A DNA stretch of 63,987 bases, the filler included, from Craspedostauros australis (taxonomy: Eukaryota): NCBI GenBank assembly GCA_030167865.1. It is 9 parts of 9 records of this genome, joined end to end, with 100 filler letters (N's around TTAATTAATTAA, not from the genome) between each part and the next. Parts side by side here need not be neighbours in the genome. Positions count along the whole stretch, not along the records: positions 37,534 to 43,151 come from JALAGF010003738.1; 8 more parts are not named here. One strand, given 5' to 3'. Of this stretch, positions 2,401-62,665 are shown in pieces. The position numbers were made by a program, and so were the translations under genes. The stretch's first letter is position 1; each line of letters begins with the position of its first letter. Under the pieces are notes generated by a model. That model was not told where the DNA came from and searched no databases. It was given only the letters and a program-made list of their open reading frames with translations.

Positions 2401-2441
2401 CCAGCTTGGAATCTCGAAACAGCGACAAGCCAGCGCGCAAG

Positions 2442-4262: not shown

Positions 4263-5576
4263 GTTTGCTATGTTTGCTATGTTTGCTATGCTTGCCTGGG
4301 CTGTGGTAGTGGTGGTAGTGGTTGTGGTACGTGTAGTACGTGTGGTACGTGTGGTACGTGTAGTACGATCTCGTGCGTAGGTCGTATGTTCTGATTCTCC
4401 AATTCGATGGTATTCAGGAAACGCAAGGTGTGTGGAATGCAATGGAGTGCGAGAACAGGTATCACATGTGAGTAATAGTATCACATGTGAGTATCAGTGC
4501 GGCTAGAACGACAGTACACATGGAAAGGCAAGTGAGCGTGCGGCACACGCCCGATGTTGCTCCTGTGATGCAGATGCGATGCAGATGGTAACTGCTCTGC
4601 TCTGCTCCCATTTTCTCCTTTCCGTGGCTACTCCACTCCATCGCTCACTCCGGCCACAACTCGCACTCTAGAGATGTGCAGCCTTCGATGCGGAATACAC
4701 ACAACCCATGGTGGAGCGTCGTCAAGTTGTCGAGCAAAGGATTCCTTGTTTCTCATTCCGCTTTCAAAGGTGCAGGGGTTTGCAAGAGTACCCGTCCTCA
4801 CCTCAATTCGATGTTCTCGATGGTCTTAGCACAACGATGATTGATGACTGATGACTGATAGTGATGATTGATAGTGATGGCTTTGGAGGAGAGTGATGCT
4901 TCCTTGTGGACGAACATTACATTGTATTCCACAGAGAATAGCCGAAGATAATAGGATCTCAACAGGCGGAATGCGAGGATCTGATGCAGATGCGGGACGG
5001 AGAGTGGCGCGAAGAACAGTGAGAAAGAAGAAACGCTGGTGAGAATGTGCATCCGACACAATGACGCAACGCAACGCAGACCAACCCACCTTGGTGGCAT
5101 TGTCGACCGTTGAGATTTCCGTTGCCGCGGTTCTCCCTCTTCCTCACTTTCTTGTGTGTCAATCATTGTTTCCAAACCAATTGTTGTCTTAGCTCGGTCT
5201 GTCCGTATGTACGTATAGTGTGTGAAAGCGTTGCTAGAAACAGTCTAACACACAAGTGCAGGTTTTCAATTCAGAACAACAAACAGAATGATGAGCCATG
5301 CACAAAGGCACGCCATTACTCGAAAGGTAACCAGTTCTCGATTGCAGAGTCAAACATATGTACATGGTATAGGTATAGTAGAGAAGAACAGGAGTTGCAA
5401 GGCATGCTAATACCGCAGTAATTGCAGATTTCGAGGACCATGCTCTGTCTGCATTCGAGTCGTCGTACTCTCCTCCACTGCAAGTACTGTATTCTCGTCC
5501 AACGTTGATCATGACGGGGCTTCACGACCAACCATCGCATCACCCCCAGCCGCGCAGCATGCACAGCGTCGCGACC

Positions 5577-20923: not shown

Positions 20924-21910
20924 TTAGAATGGAGCAGCGAATGGTGTAAGCGGTCGGAGTGGCTGTGATGATGCCGAGACAGCACTTGATTTTCGTTCCG
21001 TTGCTACTAATGTTGCATCACGCTTGTGGCTCGACGTATCTCGGTCGCAGCGATCGAATGCTTGCGTGCGACGGTTGCCGGTTGATGGCATTGAGCGACG
21101 TTGCACGTTCTGCGAGCGTCCTCGCTGCACAGCCAGCTTTGATGCGATCATCCTTCGTCTCATCTCCGGTGCAAAGTCTCGGAGGGATTGGCACACCTTC
21201 TCGTACGACTTGCGCTCACCGATATCGTACCAGATGTTGCGGGCCTTGTCCTTCTTCACGAACCTGGAACCATCAGACTTGATCATGCCCACTATCTTTG
21301 TGGCGATCATCGCCTTCTCAGCTCTTCTTGCATGGATGTACTGCACCTGGTGCTGCTTGATCAACGATCGGAAGGCTTCGTTACCGGGGTGATACTGGGT
21401 GTTCGTACCTCTGCCACACACGATGTCAATGTCTCGCAAGACGCCAACGGAGGTTTCTGTGACGGTTTCCGATCCATGAACTTGCGAGTCTTGAGACGTC
21501 GTGGAAGATGTGATGGATGCCGCTGCTGGGTGCTCTGATGCTTCGATCTTCACAGGAATCAAAGTAGATTGATCCGATGACTGCTCCATCTTCGACAGCT
21601 TTGTTGGCGATACAGCATTCTGTCGTCCAACTTGCTGACTATTCGATTTCGCACTTGGCTGAGGTGATGAGTAGGGGCGTGACAAGATGATCCGTTGCTT
21701 CTGCTTGCTCGCGCCACTTTTTGCAAAAGCATGGCGGGGTGGGAGGAAGGCGCTGCCCCAATCGCTGTGTTCGGATGGGCATGCGGTGTGATTCATAGTT
21801 GTTGATATCATCGTTATTATCTTTGGCTGTATAGCAGAACAGCTGGCTGTTGTGTCGTGATTCGAGTTGATGATGTTGGTTTGATTTGGGCTGGTGTTCG
21901 TCTTTGACAT
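20924..21910 (-). CDS. DUF6824-domain protein
   Basis: DIVCGRG...HPGNEAFRSLI...YIHARRAEKAMIA..IV..I...GSRFVKK...WYDIGERKSYEKVCQSLRD. Confidence 0.85.
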   Translation of the reverse strand: MSKTNTSPNQTNIINSNHDTTASCSAIQPKIITMISTTMNHTACPSEHSDWGSAFLPPRHAFAKSGASKQKQRIILSRPYSSPQPSAKSNSQQVGRQNAVSPTKLSKMEQSSDQSTLIPVKIEASEHPAAASITSSTTSQDSQVHGSETVTETSVGVLRDIDIVCGRGTNTQYHPGNEAFRSLIKQHQVQYIHARRAEKAMIATKIVGMIKSDGSRFVKKDKARNIWYDIGERKSYEKVCQSLRDFAPEMRRRMIASKLAVQRGRSQNVQRRSMPSTGNRRTQAFDRCDRDTSSHKRDATLVATERKSSAVSASSQPLRPLTPFAAPF

Positions 21911-24926: not shown

Positions 24927-25026
24927 NNNNNNNNNNNNNNNNNNNNNNNNNNNNNNNNNNNNNNNNNNNNTTAATTAATTAANNNNNNNNNNNNNNNNNN
25001 NNNNNNNNNNNNNNNNNNNNNNNNNN
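24927..25026. other. Artificial contig spacer (44 N + TTAATTAATTAA + 44 N); same spacer at 28589-28688, 32342-32441, 37434-37533, 43152-43251, 49139-49238, 51936-52035, 62566-62665
   Basis: Eight identical 100-nt spacers with a six-frame stop linker. Confidence 0.98.
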
Positions 25027-28588: not shown

Positions 28589-28688
28589 NNNNNNNNNNNN
28601 NNNNNNNNNNNNNNNNNNNNNNNNNNNNNNNNTTAATTAATTAANNNNNNNNNNNNNNNNNNNNNNNNNNNNNNNNNNNNNNNNNNNN

Positions 28689-31600
28689 CAGTTCATTATT
28701 CCCTGCGAATCGACTGGGAGTCAATGCCTTGCGCACTGTTCAGCTGTCAGACCACCATCTTACTTCGATCTACATTGGTACAGTCCTAATCTTCACTACT
28801 ATTTGTGTTGGATGTTACCCTGCTTACATTTGCCATGCTTGTGTTGTTGGTGGGAGCCGTTTATGCTTGCTTTTGTGCCAATGTTGCATCTCGGCGCGGA
28901 TGCTACTGTCAGTTGCGAGCAAGCGTACGCGCACCCTCCCTTTCTCTCCATCTTCACAGTTTCGATCTTTGCCCAGTGCATTCTGCCAAGGTGCGATGCC
29001 TTGTCGTCGCACGAGTTCGTCTCCTTTGCACTGGCAGGTCGGTTGTGGGGCTCCTGCTTCTTTTCCTTTCCTGCTTCTTCTGTAGTCGAGTCCGTGGCCG
29101 GTTGCATCTTGGTTCAGGGGCTTGAGGCTGCACATTATTGTCCTTCGGCTTCTTCTGTGCGCTATTCATGGCATTCCACTTCTTGTAATCATTCTCCACC
29201 TTCGTTGTCCATGACCTGTCTGCGCCATGCAGCATGCGATAACATGTGTTCGATGCAATGATCTCTTCGTTGTCGACAACGAGGTTGTTCATTGTCAATT
29301 TGCTTGTGATTCCACAATCCTTCTCCCACCGTATGTGGCCTGCTGTTGGGGCAACACATGCAAACATGTGACATTCCATGCACATCCATTTCGTGTGTAC
29401 TCCGCAGACGACACATTCTTTTCGAGCCTTCACGCAATGGATCGGCTCATGGTTGCCCTCTGCAAGGCGTTCGTTCAGAGCGACACCCTCCTGAGGCAGC
29501 GCATCGCCTGTCATTGACAGCAACTTCCGTATCTCGTCATTACTATGCGTCTTTGCTCTCTCCTGCGAGGGTCTTCCATCGTACACACGCTGTGTTCCAT
29601 TCGGTTCCACTGGAGGGGCGACAGCGTTGAACGCCTGGGTGCGCTGCATGTGAGTTTCTGCGTCTGCAGCTCGTTCAGTCATCCACGCCACTGTATCCCC
29701 CATCACTCTGCATAAGATCTCCATCGATGCAGCAACGGATTGCCTCTTGTTGACCATGCTTCTGTAGTGTCTGATGGTTGGCGTTGCATCCAGATCTGCA
29801 TTGGTATGTATGTCCGGTGTGCAGCAGTAATGCATGAGCTTGTGAAGGAACAGCATCACTACCTCCAAGATTCGCACCACAGCATTACATTGAAAAGTAG
29901 AATATGGTGGGTGAGGTTGGTGCTGCCGAATCATACGCGTCATCACATCCGAGCCACCCTTGAATCCGTTCCACCGTGCAATCACGCCTGGAACAAACGT
30001 GTGTGTTCTTGGAACTGGTATTGCCAACTCCTGACATGCCCTCCAGATATATAGCTGGTGAAAAACATCTTCTTTTGTCAGGGCAGCAATGTGGTGGCCG
30101 CCAGATCCTTTCTTGTTGCCGTGTCTATCCGAGAGAAGATACTCCTCCAACATCTTGCCCGAGGACGTCGAAGTCGGGTGCACACCTTCGTCAGTGTACG
30201 CAAACGTCAAACCCAGCCGATACATATCCCTCAAGACGATACCATAAGATTGCAGGAGAGATGGTTTGAATCTTGTTGAGAGGGATCTAAGGATTTCAGC
30301 CGTCGAACCACCTACCAGCAACATGAGTGCATCGGTAGTATGGCGATTGCAGCCAGTAGCGGAGACCAAGGGCAGGTGATGTGAGTATATCATGTTGGGA
30401 CTGTTGCGTTGCATACAATCCAACTGCGCCGGATCACGTACCAATTACGACCATCGCACCAGGCACCCCGAAGACGTACGAATGATGCAACAGCTGGATC
30501 ATTTCTGACTTGTGCTGGAACATTGCCCGCCATGCCTCTCCCTCAGCATCGCGAAAGACATGCTCGTCCTCACTGAAACCGAACGAAATGCTTGCATTGC
30601 GCTGTTGTTGCTTCTCTCTGTCTTCTGTATTCGTCTTTGTGCGCGTCTTCATCTCCACGACGAACACCTCGTCTGTGCCATCATCCAGTGGGTCTCCCAC
30701 AATGGCCAGGAAGTCCACGGAAGCTCGAGCGTACTTCTCTGTGCTTTTGGCCACAATGCCAGCACGGTATGCGGCTTTCACACGACGAGCATCACCACCA
30801 ACCCCAACACACTCCATGGCTGCCTTCATGAGTGGGAGTTCATTTGCATGTCCGATTTTCGCATTCTTTGCTGCCTTGCCTTTCAACCCCTTCATAAACC
30901 ACGATTGTAGCTGCATGGTTGTGACCTTGTACTTCGGTGCTTGCATCCATGGCGTGTCACCAGTTGTTTCAGTGGAGGAGGTCGCTGGCTCCAGGCGTTT
31001 CTCCATATCGATGAGCTCCAATGTCACCATCCTGTCCATCAGTGTGCTTTTCATGTCTTTGTCTAGCTTGGACTTTGGCAGTCGACCTAGTAATCGTTTC
31101 TTTAGAATGGCTTCAGTGAAAGCCACGAATCGTCGCCGCACCTTGTTTTCTTCCTCCAGTACAGTTTGAAGCGTCTTGAATTGCGTTGGTCGGCGGCGCT
31201 TGATTTTATTCCCATAGAACAGGTGCATGAGAGCGGTCAGGTCCCCGTCAGAGATGGCGTCTGTATCTTCTTCTGCCCTGAGAAGACTTGCTTCGAGATC
31301 CCTTGAATCCTGTGCAGGGTCTGTCAACTGTTGGTACATCATCACAGCTTTCATTCTTGTACTCTCTGTTGCGACGTCGTTGGTGTACTGCTGCTTCTTG
31401 CCATCGACGTCGAAGCCAATGTAGCGACCAACCTGTTCCCATGCAGCCTGGTTGAAGGTTGCCTGGTTGTTGGAGTTGCACCATTCACCACTGCTGAGAA
31501 TGGCGTCGATAATGTGGTAGGTTGATGTGCTCGTAAAGGCAAACCGCCTCTGCATGAACCAGAGGTGATCACCCTGCTCGCACGTCAGCCCGTCGACGTG

Positions 31601-32257
31601 AAGATCCCATACCTTTCCTGCCCAGCGTTCCTGAACCATTTCTGCTGTGGTGGCAGCGCAACTCAGGGGATTGTTCTGAGGCAGGGAGGCCGCGGCCGCC
31701 ACTGTTGATGACAGCTTCAGGTTGATCAAGGCACCTTGGAAGTAGTGAGGGTACAGCGGAGATCTTGGATTGTCTCCATCCTTCTTGGCTACCATGTCTT
31801 GGTACATGCGCAGATCCCGTTGATGGAGGAGGTTGAGGTCCCATTGGAACCGCGGAGCCTTTGTGGACAAGGCTAGAACATTTTTCTTGTTGTGACGGTA
31901 GGAGTAGCAGGTAAGTTGTTTCTTACTGATGCTGTTGGTTACTGCAATTTGCAGGTGCCGTGGTCCATTGTTGCTGACGTCAATCTGCTCGTGCCCAAAT
32001 GACACACCGTCGAAAGTGAATGGAAGATATCCACAGCGCTTGTGTGTGCCCTCGAGGTCGGCATCCTTTTCCATCAAGATTGCAGTCATATCTTCACTGT
32101 TGTACCCACGATCGGCCATGAGTGTGATATGACGGAGCAGTCCATTGGTCTGCGCAACCTGTGGCAAGAGGACCATGTTGTCATCGTCAAGGCTGTCGCG
32201 AGAGGCAGAGATTCCAGCAATAAGGCCAGACGCAGAGTGGACGAGAGTGTTCAGTGT
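28689..32257 (-). mobile_element. Copy 1 (5'-truncated) of piggyBac-like/YqaJ transposon
   Basis: Matches 32442-36010 at offset 3753; I noticed only two substitutions, both near 32170-32185; diverges at 32258. Confidence 0.85.
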
Positions 32258-32341: not shown

Positions 32342-32706
32342 NNNNNNNNNNNNNNNNNNNNNNNNNNNNNNNNNNNNNNNNNNNNTTAATTAATTAANNN
32401 NNNNNNNNNNNNNNNNNNNNNNNNNNNNNNNNNNNNNNNNNCAGTTCATTATTCCCTGCGAATCGACTGGGAGTCAATGCCTTGCGCACTGTTCAGCTGT
32501 CAGACCACCATCTTACTTCGATCTACATTGGTACAGTCCTAATCTTCACTACTATTTGTGTTGGATGTTACCCTGCTTACATTTGCCATGCTTGTGTTGT
32601 TGGTGGGAGCCGTTTATGCTTGCTTTTGTGCCAATGTTGCATCTCGGCGCGGATGCTACTGTCAGTTGCGAGCAAGCGTACGCGCACCCTCCCTTTCTCT
32701 CCATCT

Positions 32707-35700
32707 TCACAGTTTCGATCTTTGCCCAGTGCATTCTGCCAAGGTGCGATGCCTTGTCGTCGCACGAGTTCGTCTCCTTTGCACTGGCAGGTCGGTTGTG
32801 GGGCTCCTGCTTCTTTTCCTTTCCTGCTTCTTCTGTAGTCGAGTCCGTGGCCGGTTGCATCTTGGTTCAGGGGCTTGAGGCTGCACATTATTGTCCTTCG
32901 GCTTCTTCTGTGCGCTATTCATGGCATTCCACTTCTTGTAATCATTCTCCACCTTCGTTGTCCATGACCTGTCTGCGCCATGCAGCATGCGATAACATGT
33001 GTTCGATGCAATGATCTCTTCGTTGTCGACAACGAGGTTGTTCATTGTCAATTTGCTTGTGATTCCACAATCCTTCTCCCACCGTATGTGGCCTGCTGTT
33101 GGGGCAACACATGCAAACATGTGACATTCCATGCACATCCATTTCGTGTGTACTCCGCAGACGACACATTCTTTTCGAGCCTTCACGCAATGGATCGGCT
33201 CATGGTTGCCCTCTGCAAGGCGTTCGTTCAGAGCGACACCCTCCTGAGGCAGCGCATCGCCTGTCATTGACAGCAACTTCCGTATCTCGTCATTACTATG
33301 CGTCTTTGCTCTCTCCTGCGAGGGTCTTCCATCGTACACACGCTGTGTTCCATTCGGTTCCACTGGAGGGGCGACAGCGTTGAACGCCTGGGTGCGCTGC
33401 ATGTGAGTTTCTGCGTCTGCAGCTCGTTCAGTCATCCACGCCACTGTATCCCCCATCACTCTGCATAAGATCTCCATCGATGCAGCAACGGATTGCCTCT
33501 TGTTGACCATGCTTCTGTAGTGTCTGATGGTTGGCGTTGCATCCAGATCTGCATTGGTATGTATGTCCGGTGTGCAGCAGTAATGCATGAGCTTGTGAAG
33601 GAACAGCATCACTACCTCCAAGATTCGCACCACAGCATTACATTGAAAAGTAGAATATGGTGGGTGAGGTTGGTGCTGCCGAATCATACGCGTCATCACA
33701 TCCGAGCCACCCTTGAATCCGTTCCACCGTGCAATCACGCCTGGAACAAACGTGTGTGTTCTTGGAACTGGTATTGCCAACTCCTGACATGCCCTCCAGA
33801 TATATAGCTGGTGAAAAACATCTTCTTTTGTCAGGGCAGCAATGTGGTGGCCGCCAGATCCTTTCTTGTTGCCGTGTCTATCCGAGAGAAGATACTCCTC
33901 CAACATCTTGCCCGAGGACGTCGAAGTCGGGTGCACACCTTCGTCAGTGTACGCAAACGTCAAACCCAGCCGATACATATCCCTCAAGACGATACCATAA
34001 GATTGCAGGAGAGATGGTTTGAATCTTGTTGAGAGGGATCTAAGGATTTCAGCCGTCGAACCACCTACCAGCAACATGAGTGCATCGGTAGTATGGCGAT
34101 TGCAGCCAGTAGCGGAGACCAAGGGCAGGTGATGTGAGTATATCATGTTGGGACTGTTGCGTTGCATACAATCCAACTGCGCCGGATCACGTACCAATTA
34201 CGACCATCGCACCAGGCACCCCGAAGACGTACGAATGATGCAACAGCTGGATCATTTCTGACTTGTGCTGGAACATTGCCCGCCATGCCTCTCCCTCAGC
34301 ATCGCGAAAGACATGCTCGTCCTCACTGAAACCGAACGAAATGCTTGCATTGCGCTGTTGTTGCTTCTCTCTGTCTTCTGTATTCGTCTTTGTGCGCGTC
34401 TTCATCTCCACGACGAACACCTCGTCTGTGCCATCATCCAGTGGGTCTCCCACAATGGCCAGGAAGTCCACGGAAGCTCGAGCGTACTTCTCTGTGCTTT
34501 TGGCCACAATGCCAGCACGGTATGCGGCTTTCACACGACGAGCATCACCACCAACCCCAACACACTCCATGGCTGCCTTCATGAGTGGGAGTTCATTTGC
34601 ATGTCCGATTTTCGCATTCTTTGCTGCCTTGCCTTTCAACCCCTTCATAAACCACGATTGTAGCTGCATGGTTGTGACCTTGTACTTCGGTGCTTGCATC
34701 CATGGCGTGTCACCAGTTGTTTCAGTGGAGGAGGTCGCTGGCTCCAGGCGTTTCTCCATATCGATGAGCTCCAATGTCACCATCCTGTCCATCAGTGTGC
34801 TTTTCATGTCTTTGTCTAGCTTGGACTTTGGCAGTCGACCTAGTAATCGTTTCTTTAGAATGGCTTCAGTGAAAGCCACGAATCGTCGCCGCACCTTGTT
34901 TTCTTCCTCCAGTACAGTTTGAAGCGTCTTGAATTGCGTTGGTCGGCGGCGCTTGATTTTATTCCCATAGAACAGGTGCATGAGAGCGGTCAGGTCCCCG
35001 TCAGAGATGGCGTCTGTATCTTCTTCTGCCCTGAGAAGACTTGCTTCGAGATCCCTTGAATCCTGTGCAGGGTCTGTCAACTGTTGGTACATCATCACAG
35101 CTTTCATTCTTGTACTCTCTGTTGCGACGTCGTTGGTGTACTGCTGCTTCTTGCCATCGACGTCGAAGCCAATGTAGCGACCAACCTGTTCCCATGCAGC
35201 CTGGTTGAAGGTTGCCTGGTTGTTGGAGTTGCACCATTCACCACTGCTGAGAATGGCGTCGATAATGTGGTAGGTTGATGTGCTCGTAAAGGCAAACCGC
35301 CTCTGCATGAACCAGAGGTGATCACCCTGCTCGCACGTCAGCCCGTCGACGTGAAGATCCCATACCTTTCCTGCCCAGCGTTCCTGAACCATTTCTGCTG
35401 TGGTGGCAGCGCAACTCAGGGGATTGTTCTGAGGCAGGGAGGCCGCGGCCGCCACTGTTGATGACAGCTTCAGGTTGATCAAGGCACCTTGGAAGTAGTG
35501 AGGGTACAGCGGAGATCTTGGATTGTCTCCATCCTTCTTGGCTACCATGTCTTGGTACATGCGCAGATCCCGTTGATGGAGGAGGTTGAGGTCCCATTGG
35601 AACCGCGGAGCCTTTGTGGACAAGGCTAGAACATTTTTCTTGTTGTGACGGTAGGAGTAGCAGGTAAGTTGTTTCTTACTGATGCTGTTGGTTACTGCAA

Positions 35701-37080
35701 TTTGCAGGTGCCGTGGTCCATTGTTGCTGACGTCAATCTGCTCGTGCCCAAATGACACACCGTCGAAAGTGAATGGAAGATATCCACAGCGCTTGTGTGT
35801 GCCCTCGAGGTCGGCATCCTTTTCCATCAAGATTGCAGTCATATCTTCACTGTTGTACCCACGATCGGCCATGAGTGTGATATGACGGAGCAGTCCATTG
35901 GTCTGCGCAACCTGTGGCAAGAAGACCATGTTGTCGTCGTCAAGGCTGTCGCGAGAGGCAGAGATTCCAGCAATAAGGCCAGACGCAGAGTGGACGAGAG
36001 TGTTCAGTGTCAATCTGGAAGAGAGATGGAATAAAGAAGAAGAGGAATGGATGAGAAGAATTGAAAAGAAAAGGAAAAATGATCCACCAATCAATTGCTC
36101 ATATCCAAGAGAACACCATCTATTGTATCTTACCCTTTGCGGTTGGTTTGTGTGTGATGCATGCTCCGCAAGCAGCTACTGTCTGAGTGACTGCGGCAGT
36201 GCACTTTGTCGTCATCGAGCGTGATGATTCTTGGTGCGTCTCCGTGATTGAGGCAAATCTTCTGAACGCAACGATTCACTGCAACCTCGAGATCTGCCCA
36301 AAGAAATCGATGTTCAAACAGTGTGGGTGCCTCTCCATTGACCTGAAGCTTGGCCCAAGTGGAAAGGTACAACTCTTTGGACGGGAAGTCGCGAAGCTGC
36401 TCGTTGACACCAGCATCATACAGCCTCTTTGCAGTACATCCATGAATCATTTGGGCCAGGAAACCATACAAGAATTGTGAGAACTCCATGTATGATAACC
36501 CCAACCCACCTGGCCCAAACGCATCAGTGTAGATGNTGGAGGCTGGACCAAGGACGTGCCGCACCAAATCGTGTGGCGTTGGCACGAAAGGCGCGGATCC
36601 NGGTGGTGCCTTTGGGAAGAGTTGGAGGATGGCTCGACGGAGACTTCGAATCTCCATGCGCGCGTTCGACAGCAGTGCATCATCTGCATGTCCAACAGAC
36701 ACAGTCGTGCGGTAGAATTCTGGACAGAGGATGTGCCACTCGATGGCACCCCGAGTGCCTCCCTTTCCTCCTCCGATCGGTTTTGCTTTGGATCCTCCTT
36801 CAGTGGGAGGAATGATGACATGCTGCGTGGCATCCCTCCGGTTGGAAGGAAAGATACCAAAGTCTTTCGTAGGTTGGGGAGGAACAAGGCCAATGGAGAC
36901 ATTGGCGTCGTCACTGCGGACCGAAGCCACATCCACATCCTCCAAGGGTGGGTGACCGTTGCCATGAGAGAGTTGATCAACATTGAAGGGATGATCGTCA
37001 GGATGGGTGTTACCATGGCCATTGGGATCAGCAACAGGGGAGATGTCACAGGTGACAGCATGGGCATTGGATGGCTGCAT
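32707..37080 (-). CDS. piggyBac-like DDD transposase with nested YqaJ-like PD-(D/E)XK nuclease and C-terminal Cys-rich domain; exons 37080-36134, 36014-34195, 34064-32707 (~1374 aa)
   Basis: D1 ITLDDDK, NRKG-LTLNTLVHSASG, D2 MADRGY, GTHKR, D3 WNGFKGGSD, CVVCGVHTKWMCMECHMFAC; two GT-AG introns (36133-36015, 34194-34065) join the three ORFs in frame. Confidence 0.75.
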
Positions 37081-37417: not shown

Positions 37418-37533
37418 CCAATTTTATCCATCCNNNNNNNNNNNNNNNNNNNNNNNNNNNNNNNNNNNNNNNNNNNNTTAATTAATTAANNNNNNNNNNN
37501 NNNNNNNNNNNNNNNNNNNNNNNNNNNNNNNNN

Positions 37534-37727
37534 TCTTGTGCGTCGATGGCTGCCGCACGGATGGTTGTGTGACACAAGTCATACCAAATCTCTGCGACGT
37601 CCAGTGGGTTGGAACCATAATGCTGACGGAACAGAACCGTCAGGGCTTCAATGGCCTTCCACTTCGTGTCCTGGATCCCCACCAACTCGAGCCCAAGCGT
37701 GAGGACGGTGTTTGCGCTGAGGAACAT
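37534..37727 (-). CDS. N-terminus of putative PIF/Harbinger-like DDE transposase, truncated by gap
   Basis: FRQHYGSNPLDVAEIWYDL resembles the F...[YF]G..P.....IW.DL N-terminal motif I associate with diatom DDE_Tnp_4-type transposases; catalytic core not visible. Confidence 0.55.
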
Positions 37728-37858
37728 GATGCGTAGAATAGATGAGATGATGTTGACTATCGTGATTGATCCTGTGAATTGGTGGAGTTGTTGTTCTTAT
37801 GATTGGTGCATTGACTGTTGCTGCCATGTTTGTTTCCGTCGTAGTCGTAGTCGCAATC

Positions 37859-37893
<35 letters not shown>

Positions 37894-38281
37894 CCGTGCT
37901 GCGACGTTGATGTTCGTCTTGTTGTTGCTGCTGCTGATAGCGGTGATGATGATGTTGGCTCTGAATTAGCGAGCGTGTTAGGCATGCGCCGGCCGCTGGC
38001 AACACATCAGTCCAAAATAACGGAAAGACGGGAAATAGCAGCGTGCAAGCATTCAACTACATGTATGCACTATGACAGGGATAGAGCAAGGTAGTTTGGC
38101 GACGTGTAGCAAACACGGGAGATGCCATTCTGCGACGGTTGCTCGTTGGTTTCGATGAACCCATTGTCGCCAAGTGGTAGGCATGACACAGATCGTCGTG
38201 ATTGCGCCCGTTGTTGCTGTTGCCCATGTTACTGTCGAGGAACGCACGATGCCATCACAAATCAACCAATTACAGAGCAGG

Positions 38282-38719
38282 ATGGTGATGAAAGGCAAAC
38301 CAATTTCCGTCATTGGCGGCAAGTACAAGGGTCTGATTGGGTGGGTGAACGTGGACAAGAAGCCAACCAAGACTCGCCTTCCAGTCGTCTTGCAGCTCCA
38401 CGATGGCGAGCAGAAGGCGACTGCCATCAACAAGGAGAACGTCAAGCGCCGCAAGATCCCAGCAAACAGAGCCGAGGCAATCATGCAACAACAGCCTGAC
38501 ATCAACAAAATGGTTAAGAAGCTCGCGATGGCGTTGTGCGACTGCTGCAATCTCGGTGTTGTGGAGGGGAACAGCCGCATGACTCTCCGTAGCGGGGATC
38601 TTCTAAGCTTCAATACAATTCTCCTGCAGAAGATCCACGAGGCCACAGATATTCGCAAGGAGCTTGGCGATGACGCAAACATCCGTGTGGTTGATGTGAG
38701 CGAAGTCAAGATGGGGTGA
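38282..38719 (+). CDS. Small KOW/SH3-like motif protein (element cargo)
   Basis: KGKPISVIGGKYKGLIGWV is a KOW-like motif; helical C-terminus; start uncertain (upstream ATGs exist). Confidence 0.6.
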   Translation: MVMKGKPISVIGGKYKGLIGWVNVDKKPTKTRLPVVLQLHDGEQKATAINKENVKRRKIPANRAEAIMQQQPDINKMVKKLAMALCDCCNLGVVEGNSRMTLRSGDLLSFNTILLQKIHEATDIRKELGDDANIRVVDVSEVKMG

Positions 38720-38896
38720 CGGGCAACAGCAAAGCGCATCAAACACCAACCCCACCATGTCAATAGGAGACTAAAATAGGCAACAGACCAAGCACCATTT
38801 CTCTTCACTTGTTCACTAGTTATTATTGTTACGATTGTGCTGACTGCTCATGGCAGTTGCTCCTTCCTCTTGCTGTGCTACTCGTCTGAGCTGCCC

Positions 38897-40249
38897 TCAT
38901 GCGCCAGCGCCATTGCCATCCTCTTCGTCAAACAACTCGAGGTACTTTGCCATTGCGGTCGGTTTGGGCACTGAATTCAAGCGGCCGCCTTGCAAAGCCA
39001 CCTTCCAATACACAGAAGCTCCGTAGGTCACACGCCCAAGCTCTGTTGTGCCTTCACTGGCACGCTGGAGAGACAAGTGGGTCACGATGGTGTTGTCAAT
39101 GAGCCGTGGGAACACGGTGTGATCGAACCGGACGTTGATCGGAAAAATCACAAGCCAGTACGAGAACTGACGTTCTTGGGAGGCCTGGATGCTTGCGATC
39201 GTAGAACCCAGGGCGTTTTTTGCCGTTCCGCAATCTTCATCCCCAGCGTAGTAGCGCTCTGCGTCGCGATGCCAGCCGGAGGTGCTTGGGCCGCGAATCA
39301 TGATTGCACGCTCGGAGAGGCTGGGGGCGGATACAGGGATTGTTGCCGTCCACTCCTTGATGTCGTGGAGGGAAGTCGGCACCCGAATGTGATAACCCGA
39401 GAAGTTCGCATTCTTCACAGCAACGTCATTGACGTGGTCAATGAGAAAGGGACCGTTGCGTTCGGGGAACCTGGTATTAACCGGGATTTTGTACGGGTTC
39501 TCTTTTGTTCCGTCTTGGGCATTGGCAAAAAGAGAAGCGAGCGCATCGTTTCCAACATTGGCCTCCCCAAGTCCACGGGCAGACATGCCAGGGGAAGCAA
39601 AGGAAGGGGCCGGCGAAGCGAACGATGGCGGTCCGAAGGCGCGCTGTGGCGTCTCCACCCGGTTTGGCAAGAGCTGATCCTTGCTTGGGGTGGACATCCC
39701 GTCGAGATTCATGTGTACAGTGTTGCGTTGGAGTGGTGGTTTGTGAATGGCAGCTGTTGATGGCGGAGCTCGGACGGAGGTTTTGTTCACAGAAGAAGGA
39801 GCAACGGGCGGTTGTAGTGAGATGCCATTAACCGCGTCAACAAGATCATCAACACTGTCACCGACATCATCCGTGTGCGACCCATCTGAACTGCCCAAGC
39901 CATCTGAGTGATCCGAGGCATCCGAGGCATCCGAACTGTCCGAGTCCTTCTCCTTTGTCTTCTTCTCATGCTCCTTGAGCTCGGCGAGAGTCCCTTTGCC
40001 GACTTCGATTTGCGATTTGCGAAGGAGCGACATGTAGCTCGTGATCGTCCGCTTCTTGAGCCCGCTGAACAACCGACTGCTCTGCACGCGACGATTGGAT
40101 CCTGGTGCACCAAACAGAACGTTGTCGTCGTCACAAACTTCTCTTGAGAATCTAACTTGCTGTCGACTCTTGCCAATCTTCTCAACGGCTCGAGCGATGC
40201 TTTCGGCCAGACACTTACGATCGTTCTTGCTGAAGCTGGTGTCTTGCAT
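38897..40249 (-). CDS. 450-aa hypothetical protein (element cargo)
   Basis: Intact ORF: basic helical N-domain (VCDDDNVLFGAPGSNRR), disordered linker, beta-rich C-domain (DGTKENPY..VNTRFPERN...YWKVA). Confidence 0.7.
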   Translation of the reverse strand: MQDTSFSKNDRKCLAESIARAVEKIGKSRQQVRFSREVCDDDNVLFGAPGSNRRVQSSRLFSGLKKRTITSYMSLLRKSQIEVGKGTLAELKEHEKKTKEKDSDSSDASDASDHSDGLGSSDGSHTDDVGDSVDDLVDAVNGISLQPPVAPSSVNKTSVRAPPSTAAIHKPPLQRNTVHMNLDGMSTPSKDQLLPNRVETPQRAFGPPSFASPAPSFASPGMSARGLGEANVGNDALASLFANAQDGTKENPYKIPVNTRFPERNGPFLIDHVNDVAVKNANFSGYHIRVPTSLHDIKEWTATIPVSAPSLSERAIMIRGPSTSGWHRDAERYYAGDEDCGTAKNALGSTIASIQASQERQFSYWLVIFPINVRFDHTVFPRLIDNTIVTHLSLQRASEGTTELGRVTYGASVYWKVALQGGRLNSVPKPTAMAKYLELFDEEDGNGAGA

Positions 40250-40877
40250 TATCGGTGGAGATTATGAGATGATGTTGTTTGGAAGCGCTGCTGTTGAGGA
40301 GTTGGCCGTGTTGTTACTTTCCGCAGAGGTTGTGAACGAATCATCGCGTGGTTCCAGCTTCACATCATACGAGTGCTCGCGACAGCTTGCGATTCCGTCG
40401 GACAAAAACCATCAGCGAGGGAACCAATGCTGCATTTCAGACCGGATGCCCGCCAAGTCTGAACGGAAGAAGGACCATGAAATTGGGAGGATTGTTCACC
40501 AGACATTCCAACCAAATCAGAGCTATTGTGGTTTCTGTACAATGATCTCGGCATGTATGTGCAAAACTATTCAGCAGGTTGCTGCACATGACCAAGACTG
40601 CCGTGGCAAGAAACACATGAGCCAGCTTTCTGTTGTGAGATTGTGAACGGGGAGGGAAAGATGGAGCATTGGGTCCAGCTTTGTGGCTGTGTGATGGTGT
40701 GAACAAACACACGACTGCTTCAAATTGTATTGTTCTAAGCGTCACTCTAGAGCACCTGCGTGCGCGCCATCATTGGCGCCAGTACTGATACTGCTATGGG
40801 CAAGGAACCAATGGAGACACTATTAAATTGCAATGCATTTGAAATCATAATCGTCACATGAAGGGCAAGCTGGAAAG

Positions 40878-41403
40878 ATGGCATCCAACACGCCGAAATT
40901 CACCTGGCGCTGCAATCCAGCTGGCGCAATGATGAAGAACGACTTCGACATTGGCGGCATCTTCCACGAGGTGGATGTGTCTGTGGACGAGGCGTGGGCG
41001 CACTACCGCGTCCTGGAGCAATTCAAGGTTCCAGGGATGACGCAAGCTGTGTTCGCGAGATACTTCAAGCAATTCGAAAAACGCGTGAGCAAGAATCGTG
41101 GCCGCTCTGCCACTGAATTGCGTGCGCTTGAACATGACCGAACGTTGCATCCTCAGCAACGACGCAACATCCGTGGGAAGCCCGTCATGTACCTGTCTCC
41201 CGCGAAGCCCCTTGCTCGTCCAAGATATCAAGCAATCGAAGCATTTGGAAATGACACCAGCCGAACTCAAGGCTAGCAGACCAGAGTATGCTGCGTTCGA
41301 TTTGGTGCAGTTCAAGCAGCACATCTACCAAGAAGCCAAGGCGCAGAAATTCAACAATCACTTGCAATCGAAGAGAGAGCAGGCAGAACGCATGAAGAAG
41401 TGA
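40878..41403 (+). pseudogene. Two-repeat basic helical protein with a +1 frameshift (element cargo)
   Basis: Removing one C from CCCC at 41208-41211 fuses 40878..41276 and 41098..41403 into ...YLSPAKPLLVQDIKQSKHLEMTPAELKASRPEYAAF...FKQHIYQE. Confidence 0.65.
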
Positions 41404-41508
41404 AGATAATTGCATAGTAGCCTTGATATTACTATTTTATTGCTCTATACTATAGTTGTTCCTGTTGTTGATTGCACTTGGTTGTTGTTGTTGGTGTTCT
41501 GTGTGCTC

Positions 41509-42111
41509 TCAGTGGTAGCGAGCATTTGGAATTCTGCCGCGAACGAGGACTCCTCCAACGGTTGTGACAAGTCGCTTCATGGCGGAAACGGCGAAACCTG
41601 CGGTCTTCACAACCACAATCAAATGCACGAACATCAGAAAGGCCACGTATCCCAGCAGCCAGAAGATGTGGCCAGACATGAAACAGAAGCCGGACATGCA
41701 CCCATCGAAGTAAAATGTCGCGACGCTTCCGGCATCGACCAGATCGCCCATCGACGCGAAAGCGGCACGAAAGGAAAGCTCGACAGGGCTACTGCGGCGC
41801 CCACGAGAATGGGATTTGCCCATGGCGAAGAAGTGCCCATCGGGCAGGCCAAAGAATGTTGGGGATGGCGCCTTCCCAGTGTCGTGGATGACGGAGCAAG
41901 CAGCATGGACTGCTCCTGGGCGGTTGTCATGCTTGGTGTTTTGGTTGGTGGTTTGGGCAGCTGTCCCGCCAAGCATCATGTTTGTTGCAGCTGTGTCGAC
42001 CAAGTTGGCCGCATGGGCGCTGGGGAGAGAGAATGGAGGTGCTGGTGACCCATGGTGATGGCTTCCCCGTGCGCTTCGGGGGGGGGGGGATGCTGGGAAA
42101 GAGAATTTCAT
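41509..42111 (-). CDS. Hypothetical protein with C-terminal hydrophobic segment
   Basis: ATG at 42111 directly after the microsatellite; 200 aa; HIFWLLGYVAFLMFVHLIVVV. Confidence 0.4.
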   Translation of the reverse strand: MKFSFPASPPPRSARGSHHHGSPAPPFSLPSAHAANLVDTAATNMMLGGTAAQTTNQNTKHDNRPGAVHAACSVIHDTGKAPSPTFFGLPDGHFFAMGKSHSRGRRSSPVELSFRAAFASMGDLVDAGSVATFYFDGCMSGFCFMSGHIFWLLGYVAFLMFVHLIVVVKTAGFAVSAMKRLVTTVGGVLVRGRIPNARYH

Positions 42112-42216
42112 TGTGGTTGTGGTTGTGGTTGTGGTTGTCGTTGTCGTTGTCGTTGTGGTTGTGGTTGTGGTTGTGGTTGTGGTTGTGGTTGTGGTTGTGG
42201 TTGTGGATGTGGATGT
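42111..42216. repeat. (GTTGTG)n hexanucleotide microsatellite
   Basis: ~17 units with GTTGTC/GATGTG variants. Confidence 0.9.
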
Positions 42217-42680
42217 GCCTTGTTTTGTGAGCCGAAATTTGGTCAGACAGGCTTCTGTGGACATCGGGTTTCGCGCACACCATTCGCGTTCACAAGGCCT
42301 ATGACACTTTGTGATGATCGGGAGAAAAGATGCGATTGCCGGTCACAGCAAAACGACCGAACAGGGCGGCATTCACGTTTGGGAAGGCGCGGAATGCCCG
42401 AGGAAAGTTCTTGTCATTGATGTTTGAGCGTTGGCCAGCTCCGGCGAAACCATTCCGGCAGCACTGTGGGATACACAGAGCCATCATCACGAGGCGTCTG
42501 AAGTTCTTGAAGAGTATCGCGATTTGTGTGGAGGCCTTTCCACCTCCGTGGTGATCATGCACTCAAGATAACTGGGGCTGCCGTGGAACGACACGAAGCA
42601 ACGTGAACAGATGGACTTCCAAACCAATCGCCAACCCACACAACCATCTCCAGCGAGTCACGCAACCTGTGCGCTCCCAC

Positions 42681-42811
42681 CAAAAAATGCATGTGGAGTG
42701 CATTAAATGCAGTTGAAGTGCATTAAATGCATTTGAAGTGCATTAAATGCATTTGAAGTGCATTAAATGCACTTGGAGTTCAAAAAATGCATTTGAAGTG
42801 CATTAAATGCA
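42681..42811. repeat. 20-bp tandem array (consensus TTTGAAGTGCATTAAATGCA), ~6.5 units
   Basis: Direct inspection; same unit as 53147-53380. Confidence 0.92.
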
Positions 42812-43251
42812 CTTTCATTTGTGCACCAGATTAATTCGTGACTTAAGCAACTATAGGCACAAAGACGGTCATTGAACACCACAACACGATCTCATTAAAT
42901 AATGTACTTAACGACAAGACGTTTCATGGTCATTTTCATCGAATGCAAAGACAAAGATCTTAGAGAGAAGACTAACTCGATTAAATAGTCTCGATTTATT
43001 TTATGGTCAAACGAGTCAAACGACACACGTTTCAATGCATTTGCCGGGTGTCCCGGAACTGCCTCCGTCTTGTGCAAAAATCCAACACATCCGCCTTTCG
43101 GCATCCAACGCAACAAGCCAAGTCAATGCGTGAGGACGAGCAGGCACAACTNNNNNNNNNNNNNNNNNNNNNNNNNNNNNNNNNNNNNNNNNNNNTTAAT
43201 TAATTAANNNNNNNNNNNNNNNNNNNNNNNNNNNNNNNNNNNNNNNNNNNN

Positions 43252-49017: not shown

Positions 49018-49499
49018 GATGGCAAGCTGTCATTTGTCTACTTTTTCCGGTTGCTCGAGTGTGGAGTGTTGGCTGTTGGTTGGTTTGTTGATGTGCTTGC
49101 TTTTTCACTATGTGTTGATCTTGGATCTGTGAGATGAGNNNNNNNNNNNNNNNNNNNNNNNNNNNNNNNNNNNNNNNNNNNNTTAATTAATTAANNNNNN
49201 NNNNNNNNNNNNNNNNNNNNNNNNNNNNNNNNNNNNNNTGACTGTTGGTGCGAGCGACTTGGTTGCTGTGATAGCTTTTCCATCACGCTCGTTTCCCTTG
49301 TTGTGCACTTCCCACAGAACACCTCGCACACCATGATATCCGACTACCACAATAGCAATATCCGCCTGAGCACACCTCCTTCCGCAAATGCCGTCAAGAT
49401 GATGAGCGCGGTGGCTGGTGCTTCAATTCCCCCATCTGAACAAGTTCGAGTGGAGGATGCACGCGTTGTACAGAAACGTGAAGCTGACGGACGACACAG

Positions 49500-51159
49500 C
49501 TGAGACTGGATCACGCATCATGCTGGAGATGTGTGCGATGGCTCAGTGTTGATGCCAATGCCGCACATCTTTTATCCAATGATGCCTTTGGCCAAGTTGT
49601 CAAGCTGGAGCATTGCTCAAGACATGCACCCTGAGGCGAATTGGTCCTGAGATGCAAGAAACAACAGCTTGGCACCGATTCATCATATGGTACCAATGCA
49701 TTGCACACAAAATGCATTGCTTTGAGCACCAGAATATTTGCAAATCCAACCAATTGGTTGGACCAAAGCAAGCCTTGCACACTCCAACAGCAGCAATCCA
49801 AGACAGTGCAAGAGTAGAGCCAGGTGAGCATAGTTTCGCTACCAGCACATACTTTATCACATCAGTGACAAACTTCAATTGGTGTCACATGACATCCTGT
49901 TGGTCGCTCTCCTGCTTGCATGCCATCTCTTGTTCTCTCTTATCGCTCAGCTCGATCCTAATTGCACACCAAATCCAGATCAAGAGCCACCCACACCTGT
50001 CAAGTCAGATGTCATTGCAGTATTCACAAGCTCCATCAAGTGATCATTCAGAGCATCGTTAAGCACAGCAATGAGAGAACAAGTGTTGAAAATCCTCTGG
50101 GTATTGCAAAGATACGCTTCAGTTGCATCAAGGTTGACCAAAGCACAAATATCAAGGTGCATGGCGTTTGCTTTGCTCATTGGCTCACCAGCTGCCCCAC
50201 GGCTGGTCCAAACAATCAGGTGAACGATCGCATATCGCAAGGACCCAACAATGTGATGGCGACGAAAGTGCCAATAGTGACTCTGGCTGAGGTTCCATGC
50301 TGCTGATATTCCAAGCTTCTCACCCACTCACAGCCACATCCATCCTGTTTCACTATCCACAACCGAACCAAATCATGAAGTGTGAGCTAGCAGTTGTGTG
50401 ATGAAGGGCATCCCTGCACCACCTTCTGCACAACATGCACACTTGCCATCGTCTTTTCTCTGCATGTGTGTGGAAGTGTTGAGCTGATGAGTGACTTGGA
50501 ATGTGTGACACAGCAGTGGACTGATTGCCATTTCCACTTTGCACCATCACCATCACTCTAACGAATGAAATTCTGATCACAAGTCAATCGCTTGCCTCTA
50601 GAGCAACTTAGTGATGACTGAGCTAGTCGTCTGGAGTGTTCAATTCCATGGCACGTTGGCTTCCCATGGCTGCTACTACAGTGTTCCGCTTTGCTCCTCT
50701 TTCCCTTTCTTGGCACCAGTCTCAGCTGTCCACAGGATGATTTGATGAAGTGCACAAAGTCCACTAACGTGCCATGATGAATGTACAAATCAACTTTCCC
50801 AGTACCCTCGTCTTCATCCATGACCTTGCACAACTCCATCATGGACATTGCAATGCACACATCATCAAATCTGTTGCTTATCGTTCCACCACAAAAGAGG
50901 GCATGAATGCCTCCCATCAGCTGAGGCTTCTGACACAACTTGCTGGAATCTCTGTGGGTAAACAATGAATGTATGTCTTCAGTGACCATCCTCATTGTTG
51001 CTTGCCATGCATGCTTGTGGAATGAAGTGGAGTGCAACCCTGGCTGTTTTTCATCTTGTTGATATCATCTCTTTCATTCTGCTTCTTCCATTTCTTCATT
51101 GCCAACAGATCGCCTGTGCTGGCAGCAGCAAAGAGTTGCTTGTTTGCGACATCTGGCAT
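49500..51159 (-). pseudogene. Highly decayed, CpG-depleted gene relic with N-terminal ankyrin-like repeat
   Basis: KQLFAAASTGDL...DINKMKNSQGCTPLH then multiple stops and frameshifts; left boundary approximate. Confidence 0.4.
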
Positions 51160-52035
51160 GTTGAGATGATGGTCGATAGCTGTCGAGGGGTTGCCAGGTG
51201 GGAGTTGGATGATTGGATGATTGTTTGAATGGTTGGATGTTGTATGGTGCCTCTTGACATGGTGCGAGCATGGACTCATGCTGTACATGGCTCGTCGAGG
51301 AGGGCCGTCAACGTGGAATGCAGATCCTCGTCGTGTCCAGGCTTGAGTTGTGCGAAGTGTTGGGGACGAACGAAACGAAACGAGATGAGACGAAGCGGAG
51401 TGGGACAAGAGGCGTCAATCTGGACATGTTGAGAAAAGGGTATCCATGACTGGTAGGACCACCAAAGTCGACGGAACACTGGTGTCATGAACAACACACT
51501 CGTCGCAGTCAAGCTGGGGAACACGGTAATTTGTCCACTCACGACTCGACGAGCTCGTGATTGAGCTGAATCGAGTCGTGCTTTATGACGTAGTTCCCGT
51601 CAAGCTCTGAAGTTGCGCGCCGGGCGTGCCTGATCCCGGATGCCGCTCTCGCCCGATTCCCAATCGCGCGCTTGGTTAGTTGTGAGGTTCGCTTGTGCAA
51701 ACGAGTGTCACTTTCGTGTCGTTTGGCGAACGGACGTGATGCCGAAAACAAGCTTCAAAGTACTGCGACATGTTACATTGTGTCAATTCGGACAAATGTG
51801 TTCTTCATTTTTGGACAAGTCACGATTTCGTGTCGCATACACATAATATGATAGCTATTTCGATTATGTTTGAAATGTCCTACCACCAATGAAAAATATT
51901 GTGTACAAATATACGTAGCACAAGTACCAAGTTTGNNNNNNNNNNNNNNNNNNNNNNNNNNNNNNNNNNNNNNNNNNNNTTAATTAATTAANNNNNNNNN
52001 NNNNNNNNNNNNNNNNNNNNNNNNNNNNNNNNNNN

Positions 52036-52903: not shown

Positions 52904-53628
52904 GTCGGGGACACCCGGCAAGTGCATCGAATACTTCAGTTTACGACTAGTACGACTCGAAAGTGCTTTTTGTCATTTGTTGCGTTTCTTCGCTGTTTGT
53001 GAAATGTTGACAAAGCAAATGTCGCAGCGACGTCTTGTTTTGATTCATTTATATTAATTGTTTGTCAATCGGTGTTACTCGGACATATTCAGTCATTGCT
53101 TCCGTGTTGTTGAAGCGTCATCGAGTCCCGTCGAACCTGCTTCCTTTTGCAAAAAATGCATTTGCAGTGCATTTAATGCATTTGGGGTTCAAAAAATGCA
53201 ATTGAAGTACATTAAATGCAATTGGAGTGCATTAAATGCACTTGGAGTTCAAAAAATGCATTTGAAGTGCATTAAATGCAAATGGAGTGCATTAAATGCA
53301 TTTGGAGTGCAAAAAATGCAAATTGAGTGCATTAAATGCATTTGCAGTGCATTAAATGCATTAGGAGTGCATTAAATGCACTTTCAGTTGTGCATCAGAT
53401 TGATTCGTGACTTAGACAGCTACAGTCACAACGGCGGTCATTGGACACCAATAGACGATCTCGTTAAATATAATACTTAACGGTACGACATCAATAGGTC
53501 ATTTTCAGCGAATGCAACGACACAGATTGTGGAGGCAAGACTAATTCGATTAAACAGCCTCGATTCATCTCTCTGGTCAAATGAGTCAAATGATACACGT
53601 TTCAATGGACTTGCCGGGTGTCCCGGTC
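52904..53628. mobile_element. ~725-bp MITE with 28-bp imperfect TIRs
   Basis: Left GTCGGGGACACCCGGCAAGTGCATCGAA vs reverse complement of right end GACCGGGACACCCGGCAAGTCCATTGAA (24/28); no real ORF; no clear TSD. Confidence 0.8.
53147..53380. repeat. 20-bp tandem array, 11 full units plus a partial one
   Basis: Units such as ATTGGAGTGCATTAAATGCA in exact 20-nt register. Confidence 0.93.
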
Positions 53629-62429: not shown

Positions 62430-62665
62430 AAGAATTGGCCTCCACTCAAGCCAAAGACACTAGAGAATAGAATACGCCGCGCGCTGAACATAAACCTTGA
62501 CAGTGATCGGATAGAACAGTTTAGACACACTATTATAGAGCCCAATGGGACGGCTTAAACCTGTGNNNNNNNNNNNNNNNNNNNNNNNNNNNNNNNNNNN
62601 NNNNNNNNNTTAATTAATTAANNNNNNNNNNNNNNNNNNNNNNNNNNNNNNNNNNNNNNNNNNNN

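Follow-up and report, generated by a model that had tools for sequence, protein, structure and literature searches.

A contig of Craspedostauros australis that probably carries part of a multi-gene variant of PIF/Harbinger transposons

Gene content of the contig

We analyzed a stretch of 63,987 nt from Craspedostauros australis (the window), which comprises nine contigs chained via eight N44-TTAATTAATTAA-N44 joiners. The interval studied is one entire contig of 5,618 bp (positions 37534-43151, JALAGF010003738.1), and it probably carries part of a new, multi-gene variant of PIF/Harbinger transposons. Its main features are listed below, together with a short element located on another contig (aa, amino acids; ORF, open reading frame; TM, transmembrane; TIR, terminal inverted repeat; MITE, miniature inverted-repeat transposable element; pI, isoelectric point). 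Four of its ORFs have homologs in a metagenomic locus, L002.

37534..37727, minus strand: N-terminus of a PIF/Harbinger-type (DDE_Tnp_4) transposase, 64 codons, by homology to the 324-aa protein of L002
38183..38719, plus strand: KOW-like basic protein, 178 aa, pI 9.6, head-to-head with the transposase gene
38897..40249, minus strand: 450-aa protein, tail-to-tail with the KOW-like gene
40878..41403, plus strand: gene for a two-repeat basic protein, about 175 codons, frameshifted, by homology to L002 3301-4119 (minus strand)
41509..42264, minus strand: 251-aa TM ORF with a poly-Thr run and one hydrophobic segment
42681..43056, unstranded: terminal region in common with the right half of the MITE, by alignment to 53250-53626
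42685..42811, unstranded: subterminal tandem array, 6.3 copies of the 20-bp unit AAATGCATTTGAAGTGCATT, a candidate protein-binding platform
43031..43056, minus strand: TIR (CCGGGACACCCGGCAA...), outer end pointing away from the genes
52906..53626, unstranded: complete 721-bp MITE on another contig, non-autonomous, with both TIRs (about 26 bp) and flanks TGT / TCT

A preliminary description of this DNA had placed the transposase fragment and the KOW-like, 450-aa and TM ORFs at these positions and on these strands, and our analysis agreed. The location given for the two-repeat basic ORF was also correct; its description as a single ORF was not, since two frames are joined across a +1 shift at a C4 run. 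An ORF was indeed present where a KOW-motif protein had been proposed, and this protein had weak leads to KOW families (PHROG 7007, UpxY and Atlas, detailed below) and no Pfam KOW match. The proposed TIR-bearing end was found as well, with its boundary at 43056 and not at 43059.

The transposase gene begins with an ATG and is then open into the contig end, with the catalytic domain outside the window. Position 37534 is where the contig starts, so the assembly breaks off within a gene at this left edge, which is not the end of the element. The fragment aligned with the N-terminus (first 54 residues) of the 324-aa protein of L002, with 43% identity over 51 aa (E 3e-14). The L002 protein (2168-3142, plus strand) matched DDE_Tnp_4 (PF13359) over residues 173-297 with 26.2 bits against a cut-off of 24.8 (E 6.9e-6), which was the sole Pfam match among the four L002 proteins. 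Its motifs TIDGVDC, IVDRGY and RHETFNGRLK, judged by eye, presumably fit the D, D and E regions. A PDB sequence search with the L002 transposase gave nothing significant (best E 0.27), and a word-index search for longer proteins matching the 64-aa fragment scored none of its 84 candidates. Among the six ORFs of the contig, none had a Pfam match at E<=0.1.

Coding potential was assessed with a per-codon score, based on a table trained on the Pfam-supported genes of the window (0.13-0.73 for the training genes themselves). The four conserved ORFs scored 0.29-0.53 in frame, including 0.38 for the transposase fragment, and were negative in other frames; these values are within the range of Pfam-supported genes. 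A hexamer microsatellite, (GCTGTT)n, occupies positions 37859-37893 in the intergenic region between the transposase and KOW-like genes.

Conserved linkage in a metagenomic locus

When metagenome contigs were scanned with only the C-terminal domain of the 450-aa protein, two loci were returned, L001 and L002. An earlier metagenome scan, which picked low-complexity patterns of the 450-aa protein, had yielded no confirmed relative among 593 stretches. L001 (1,549 bp) was 100% identical to L002 (4,791 bp) over 1,422 bp and lengthened it by 127 bp. The G+C content of L002 is 36%, and its base composition is very unlike that of the window contig, indicating that it came from a quite different organism.

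Inside 4.1 kb, L002 holds homologs of the transposase, KOW-like, 450-aa and two-repeat ORFs, in the order 450-aa relative (plus strand), 154-aa KOW-like protein (minus), 324-aa transposase (plus) and 272-aa two-repeat protein (minus). The 450-aa and KOW-like genes are tail-to-tail, and the KOW-like and transposase genes head-to-head, with order and strands alike in the window and in L002, at a protein identity of 23-43% between the two loci. The co-occurrence of these ORFs with DDE_Tnp_4 that the preliminary description had anticipated was thus found, in one independent locus. Regarding its proposal of a transposase plus four accessory genes, conserved linkage was observed for three of the latter and not for the TM ORF.

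The strand of the two-repeat gene relative to the 450-aa/KOW/transposase block is kept and its position differs. In the window, it is located past the 450-aa gene, with the KOW-like and 450-aa genes between it and the transposase gene and the TIR outside it; in L002, it and the transposase gene are arranged tail-to-tail, 158 bp apart. The two gene orders are circular permutations of each other, which could reflect rearrangement via a circular or tandem intermediate. We infer that the four genes would lie between two TIRs and move together. Fusions between the families were not found among 213 proteins, of which 174 matched the 450-aa profile, 38 the two-repeat profile and none the KOW-like profile, with no overlap.

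The AT-rich region of L002 past the two-repeat gene (4240-4580) contains repeated palindromic motifs of the CGTACGGTACG type, including a 26-nt inverted pair (4470-4495 / 4559-4584). These motifs may be candidate subterminal binding sites of the L002 element.

The TM ORF probably does not belong to the conserved set. Its in-frame codon score of 0.15-0.23 is below that of the four conserved ORFs, and the L002 ORF list contained none comparable to it. Scans of Pfam, NCBIfam and PHROGs gave no homolog, and no homology search or tblastn of L001/L002 was aimed at this ORF. Its best 19-aa hydrophobic window is at residues 200-218 (Kyte-Doolittle mean 2.49), and its poly-Thr run is encoded by a second hexamer microsatellite, (TTGTGG)n, at 42111-42217.

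Accessory proteins

The two-repeat gene consists of two overlapping frames, 40878-41276 and 41134-41403. A sequence typical of the family (...SPAKP / LLVQDIK...) results only if these frames are joined across a +1 shift, i.e., one surplus base, at the C4 run 41208-41211. The shift is either genuine or an error at the homopolymer. The first frame was 31% identical (E 1e-13) to the protein encoded by L002 3301-4119 on the minus strand (272 aa), and the second was 47% identical (E 4e-15) to the next consecutive part of the same protein. We detected 38 homologs (E<=0.001, among 86 candidates), all of which were from ENA, JGI or Logan. The family is strongly basic (pI about 10) and its members are mostly 170-270 aa long; two of them have an extra stretch that resembles a third repeat in the alignment. 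No Pfam domain was found in any of the 38 homologs, and scans of viral and prokaryote genomes with a seven-sequence alignment detected no relative.

An AlphaFold2 model of residues 1-175 of the L002 two-repeat protein, built from a 40-row alignment, had a mean predicted local distance difference test score (pLDDT) of 92 and showed two three-helix units, each closing in a long helix. Foldseek found no match to this model at E<=0.001. The two-repeat protein, whose gene is tail-to-tail with the transposase gene in L002, most likely corresponds to the second protein (ORF1) of canonical Harbinger elements. If so, the true surplus over canonical elements is two genes, those for the KOW-like and 450-aa proteins, and not four.

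The 450-aa protein belongs to a large family. A three-sequence profile detected 609, 362 and 103 clusters at E<=1e-3, 1e-10 and 1e-30, respectively, among 1.84 billion representatives from public metagenomes. A word-index search matched the window protein to a single relative, P0001 (32% identity over the C-terminal 196 aa, E 3e-22), and tblastn of the L002 homolog against the window gave E 2.9e-22 over 412 aa. The family alignment comprised 72 sequences, i.e., 70 of the 150 listed matches, with longer ones picked, plus the window and L001 proteins. Pfam analysis of these 72 members found no domain except for one low-complexity SR-25 match. In the 10 clusters that were checked, members were solely from JGI, ENA and Logan and were either named 'hypothetical protein' or nameless. 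The 450-aa alignment, when used to scan viral and prokaryote genomes, identified no relative, and an Atlas search gave no usable match.

The AlphaFold2 model of the 450-aa protein had a mean pLDDT of 75.7, with both folded domains above 90. It contains a helical N-domain (residues 8-104), a disordered acidic and Pro/Ser-rich linker (110-231) and an alpha/beta C-domain (235-430). The best fold matches of the N-domain were helix-turn-helix domains of the PadR, MarR and TrpR types, and those of the C-domain were beta-sandwiches of the small heat-shock (HSP20), CS and p23 kinds; all of these were weak. Foldseek against PDB gave a best E of 0.16 and BFVD a best E of 8.9e-3, and VIA-align Z scores were 4-6.2 (4.2-6.2 for the C-domain, with root-mean-square deviations up to 11.7). 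A possible relationship between the 450-aa and two-repeat families was also considered and was rejected (profile-profile probability 0.5%).

The KOW-like protein was 28% identical over 94 aa (E 1e-11) to the 154-aa protein encoded by L002 1465-1929 on the minus strand. The KOW profile (PF00467) was matched neither by the window protein (Pfam, E<=0.1) nor by the L002 protein (E<=1). Three leads were obtained for this protein: a match of residues 33-85 to PHROG 7007, which is MotB-like (E 6.8e-5); a weak match to the KOW part of NCBIfam UpxY (E 0.091); and Atlas clusters with KOW families (scores 0.78-0.81). A PDB sequence search with the KOW alignment gave nothing significant. Its best hit was a histone H4 chain (E 0.67), and this non-significant profile match covers the C-terminal residues, about 129-178, of the KOW-like protein.

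Element end and a short derivative

The terminal region 42681-43056 and the right half of the MITE (53250-53626), which are on different contigs, were 82.5% identical over 377 columns, with the same TIR and the same 20-bp array. The termini of the MITE are CGGGGACACCCGGCAAGTGCATCGAA... and, on the other strand, ...CCGGGACACCCGGCAAGTCCATTGAA. Its array is longer, with about 11 copies of the 20-bp unit (>200 bp). Each unit carries two ARTGCATT half-sites about 10 bp apart. In the window, ARTGCATT was observed 49 times against 6.9 expected; nearly all occurrences were in the two arrays, and one was in the TIR, where a AATGCATT site is located at 43034-43041. The similarity between the two sequences halts at the inner edge of the array, which is the pattern expected of an autonomous element and a MITE derived by internal deletion. 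When the MITE's left half was aligned locally with the contig, no match beyond the TIR was obtained (score 22, with a mean of 17.8 and a maximum of 27 for shuffled sequences in a related comparison). Absence of a match to the left 242 bp is expected if the left end of the element lies beyond the contig.

No inverted partner (left TIR) of 43031-43056 was found in the contig at up to 3 mismatches. The possibility that an independent truncated MITE forms the 43056 end is disfavored, since the terminus faces outward from the genes and the contig has no left TIR.

A single AATGCATT site is also present at 40832-40839 and precedes the ATG of the two-repeat gene by 39 bp; it could be due to chance or be autoregulatory. 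A pair of AATGCATT sites at 49695-49718 seemed unrelated when inspected.

Relation to known transposons and proposed mechanism

Canonical PIF/Harbinger elements depend on two proteins of their own, ORF1 and the transposase (excerpts of PMC2836001). In all autonomous Harbingers of Ectocarpus, the two genes are tail-to-tail (PMC12477816, in part), and the transposase and two-repeat genes of L002, 158 bp apart, have this same arrangement. According to the same excerpts, the Harbinger target-site duplication is 3 bp long, TNA or, in the Pangu group, ANT. Harbinger-like elements have been reported in Thalassiosira pseudonana (excerpts of PMC2806351). In the literature searched, no Harbinger with KOW-like or other extra conserved genes was found.

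The lineage described here resembles canonical elements (Ping/Pong and PIF of plants, Harbinger3_DR and 15 Ectocarpus families) in that L002 encodes a DDE_Tnp_4 transposase and, tail-to-tail with it, a separate basic helical protein. Short TIRs, subterminal repeats and short non-autonomous derivatives are further common features. Unlike these elements, it has two additional conserved genes (KOW-like and 450-aa), and its second protein consists of two copies of its own repeat, with no detectable Myb/SANT signature. In addition, the flanks of the MITE are TGT / TCT, and the L002 transposase is short (324 aa) and barely over the Pfam cut-off. The MITE itself is similar to Tourist-like MITEs, as it has both TIRs, is non-coding and has its right half in common with the gene-bearing contig; it differs from them in its 82% identity to the gene-bearing copy, its tandem array of 20-bp units of >200 bp and the lack of a clean 3-bp duplication.

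Proteins beyond the transposase that are conserved within a lineage are also encoded by MuDR (mudrA/mudrB), CACTA/EnSpm and KDZ elements. These belong to other transposase superfamilies, and we know of none of their accessory proteins that resembles those described here.

On balance, we favor with moderate confidence the view that the contig represents the right-hand portion of an autonomous cut-and-paste DNA transposon, a member of the PIF/Harbinger superfamily from a lineage with four conserved genes. The conserved set would comprise a DDE_Tnp_4 transposase, a basic protein with two three-helix repeats, a small basic protein with a KOW/SH3-like barrel, and a protein of about 450 aa with a beta-sandwich-like C-domain. 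In the zebrafish Harbinger3_DR system, a Myb-like protein reportedly binds subterminal repeats and recruits the transposase. By analogy, the two-repeat protein may bind the ARTGCATT sites of the subterminal array and TIR in the manner of an ORF1/Myb-like partner, and may recruit the transposase to the element ends; the transposase would then excise and reinsert the element. The 721-bp MITE would be an example of the short derivatives that the same ends could mobilize. As for the KOW-like and 450-aa proteins, these would be additional factors encoded by the element, and we speculate that they link it to transcription or chromatin of the host.

The chance is about even, in our estimate, that the contig represents a widespread, previously undescribed PIF/Harbinger lineage of marine protists, in which the two-repeat protein replaces the Myb-like partner and a KOW-barrel protein and a winged-helix-like/beta-sandwich protein are always carried. 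PIF/Harbinger is the textbook two-protein transposon. If two more proteins have been kept across deep divergence, extra element factors can become obligatory. In that case, three unannotated protein families, one with >600 environmental sequence clusters, would gain a context, and a set of 'hypothetical proteins' in genomes of diatoms and marine protists would be transposon genes. Whether the two-repeat protein pairs with the 20-bp array and its two half-sites can be tested directly.

Weighing the evidence and alternative explanations

Several observations weigh against the reading of the contig as part of a four-gene autonomous element. The linkage is backed by two independent loci only, and the two-repeat gene lies to one side of the conserved block in the window and to the other side in L002. 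L002 has no recognizable TIR, and in none of the loci examined were the genes enclosed by both ends. The tblastn search with the four L002 proteins detected no second copy in the nine window contigs (other hits at E>=0.24). Evidence for the transposase includes a DDE_Tnp_4 score of the L002 relative that is just 1.4 bits over the cut-off, and the window gene ends at codon 64, with the remainder beyond the contig. For the two-repeat protein, Pfam Myb/SANT was matched by neither the window frames nor the L002 protein, and VIA-align Z scores, 5.1-6.2 for FF and 4.4-5.4 for homeodomain/Myb/SANT structures, were in the range common for helical folds. The flanks of the MITE, of which there is one complete copy only, agree at two of three bases and fit neither TNA nor ANT. 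In addition, the contig holds no counterpart of the MITE's left 242 bp, a result that also fits an unrelated truncated MITE. Finally, a large metagenomic family such as that of the 450-aa protein also fits a single-copy host gene spread across many species.

Some of the data could be accommodated by a canonical two-gene Harbinger in which the KOW/450-aa pair is outside the mobile unit, either as a separate small element or as neighboring or captured host genes. Canonical elements code for two proteins (PMC2836001, PMC13668399 and PMC12477816, each in part). The transposase and two-repeat genes of L002 form the classic tail-to-tail pair, with the KOW-like and 450-aa genes as a second tail-to-tail pair alongside, and the place of the two-repeat gene relative to the latter pair varies between the loci. 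We consider this explanation unlikely. The KOW-like gene is head-to-head with the transposase gene in both loci, which differ to the extent of 23-43% protein identity, and chance adjacency occurring twice is improbable. Moreover, the KOW/450-aa pair of the window sits between the two canonical genes, and is therefore inside any element that holds both.

An immobile, domesticated cluster of Harbinger-derived host genes, with the MITE-like end being an unrelated truncated insertion nearby, also seems improbable to us. Codon usage of the genes is like that of host genes, the window has no second copy and the left half of the MITE is absent from the contig, all of which would suit such a cluster, and co-domestication of both Harbinger proteins is recurrent (excerpts of PMC9710019, PMC5339849 and PMC9392472). 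However, the two-repeat gene of the window is frameshifted, unless this is a homopolymer sequencing error, and the terminus faces outward and bears the ARTGCATT sites of the array. The contig is short and broken inside the transposase gene, as is seen for repeats in assemblies. Named reference sources also lacked the 450-aa (10 clusters) and two-repeat (38 matches) proteins, which fits masked transposon genes better than host genes. The known domesticated pairs HARBI1-NAIF1, ALP1-ALP2 and HDP1-HDP2 similarly combine a Harbinger-type nuclease with a partner DNA-binding protein, but they are unlinked single-copy host genes without TIRs, whereas the genes described here are clustered beside a transposon end and one of them is frameshifted.

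An integrated virus or virus-like fragment (Polinton-like or giant-virus-derived) coding for a DDE nuclease is highly improbable: although the genes are compact, lack introns and annotation and alternate in strand, and the best library match of the KOW-like ORF is the phage family PHROG 7007, capsid, polymerase, packaging and integrase genes are absent, 2.9 million viral contigs contained no relative of the 450-aa or two-repeat families, and the 450-aa model had no viral fold match at E<=0.001.

Genomic context and other observations

The joiners of the window are artificial. Features that seem to cross one are therefore artifacts, and adjoining contigs may be unlinked. The positions are as follows:

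24927-25026, 28589-28688, 32342-32441, 37434-37533, 43152-43251, 49139-49238, 51936-52035 and 62566-62665, unstranded: joiners
37434..37533, unstranded: joiner at the left limit of the contig studied
43152..43251, unstranded: joiner at its right limit, 95 bp past the TIR

The genes on the first contig of the window, which code for the Mg-chelatase H subunit, an ankyrin protein, a BTB protein and two DUF6824 proteins, are ordinary nuclear genes of a photosynthetic eukaryote. The DUF6824 domain (Pfam) was detected in the proteins encoded at 11308-13623 (E 4.7e-18) and 20927-21910 (E 1.7e-27). This domain is typical of diatoms.

Two other contigs are 99.94% identical over their first 3,569 bp (28689-32257 and 32442-36010). 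The shared part codes for a 486-aa ORF and a 580/610-aa ORF, neither of which had a Pfam match. The 580/610-aa ORF holds the stretch ...MADRGYNSED..., and a 316-aa ORF upstream, on the fourth contig, holds ...ITLDDDKVH.... By eye, these stretches recall DDE transposases, presumably of the piggyBac or IS4 kind.

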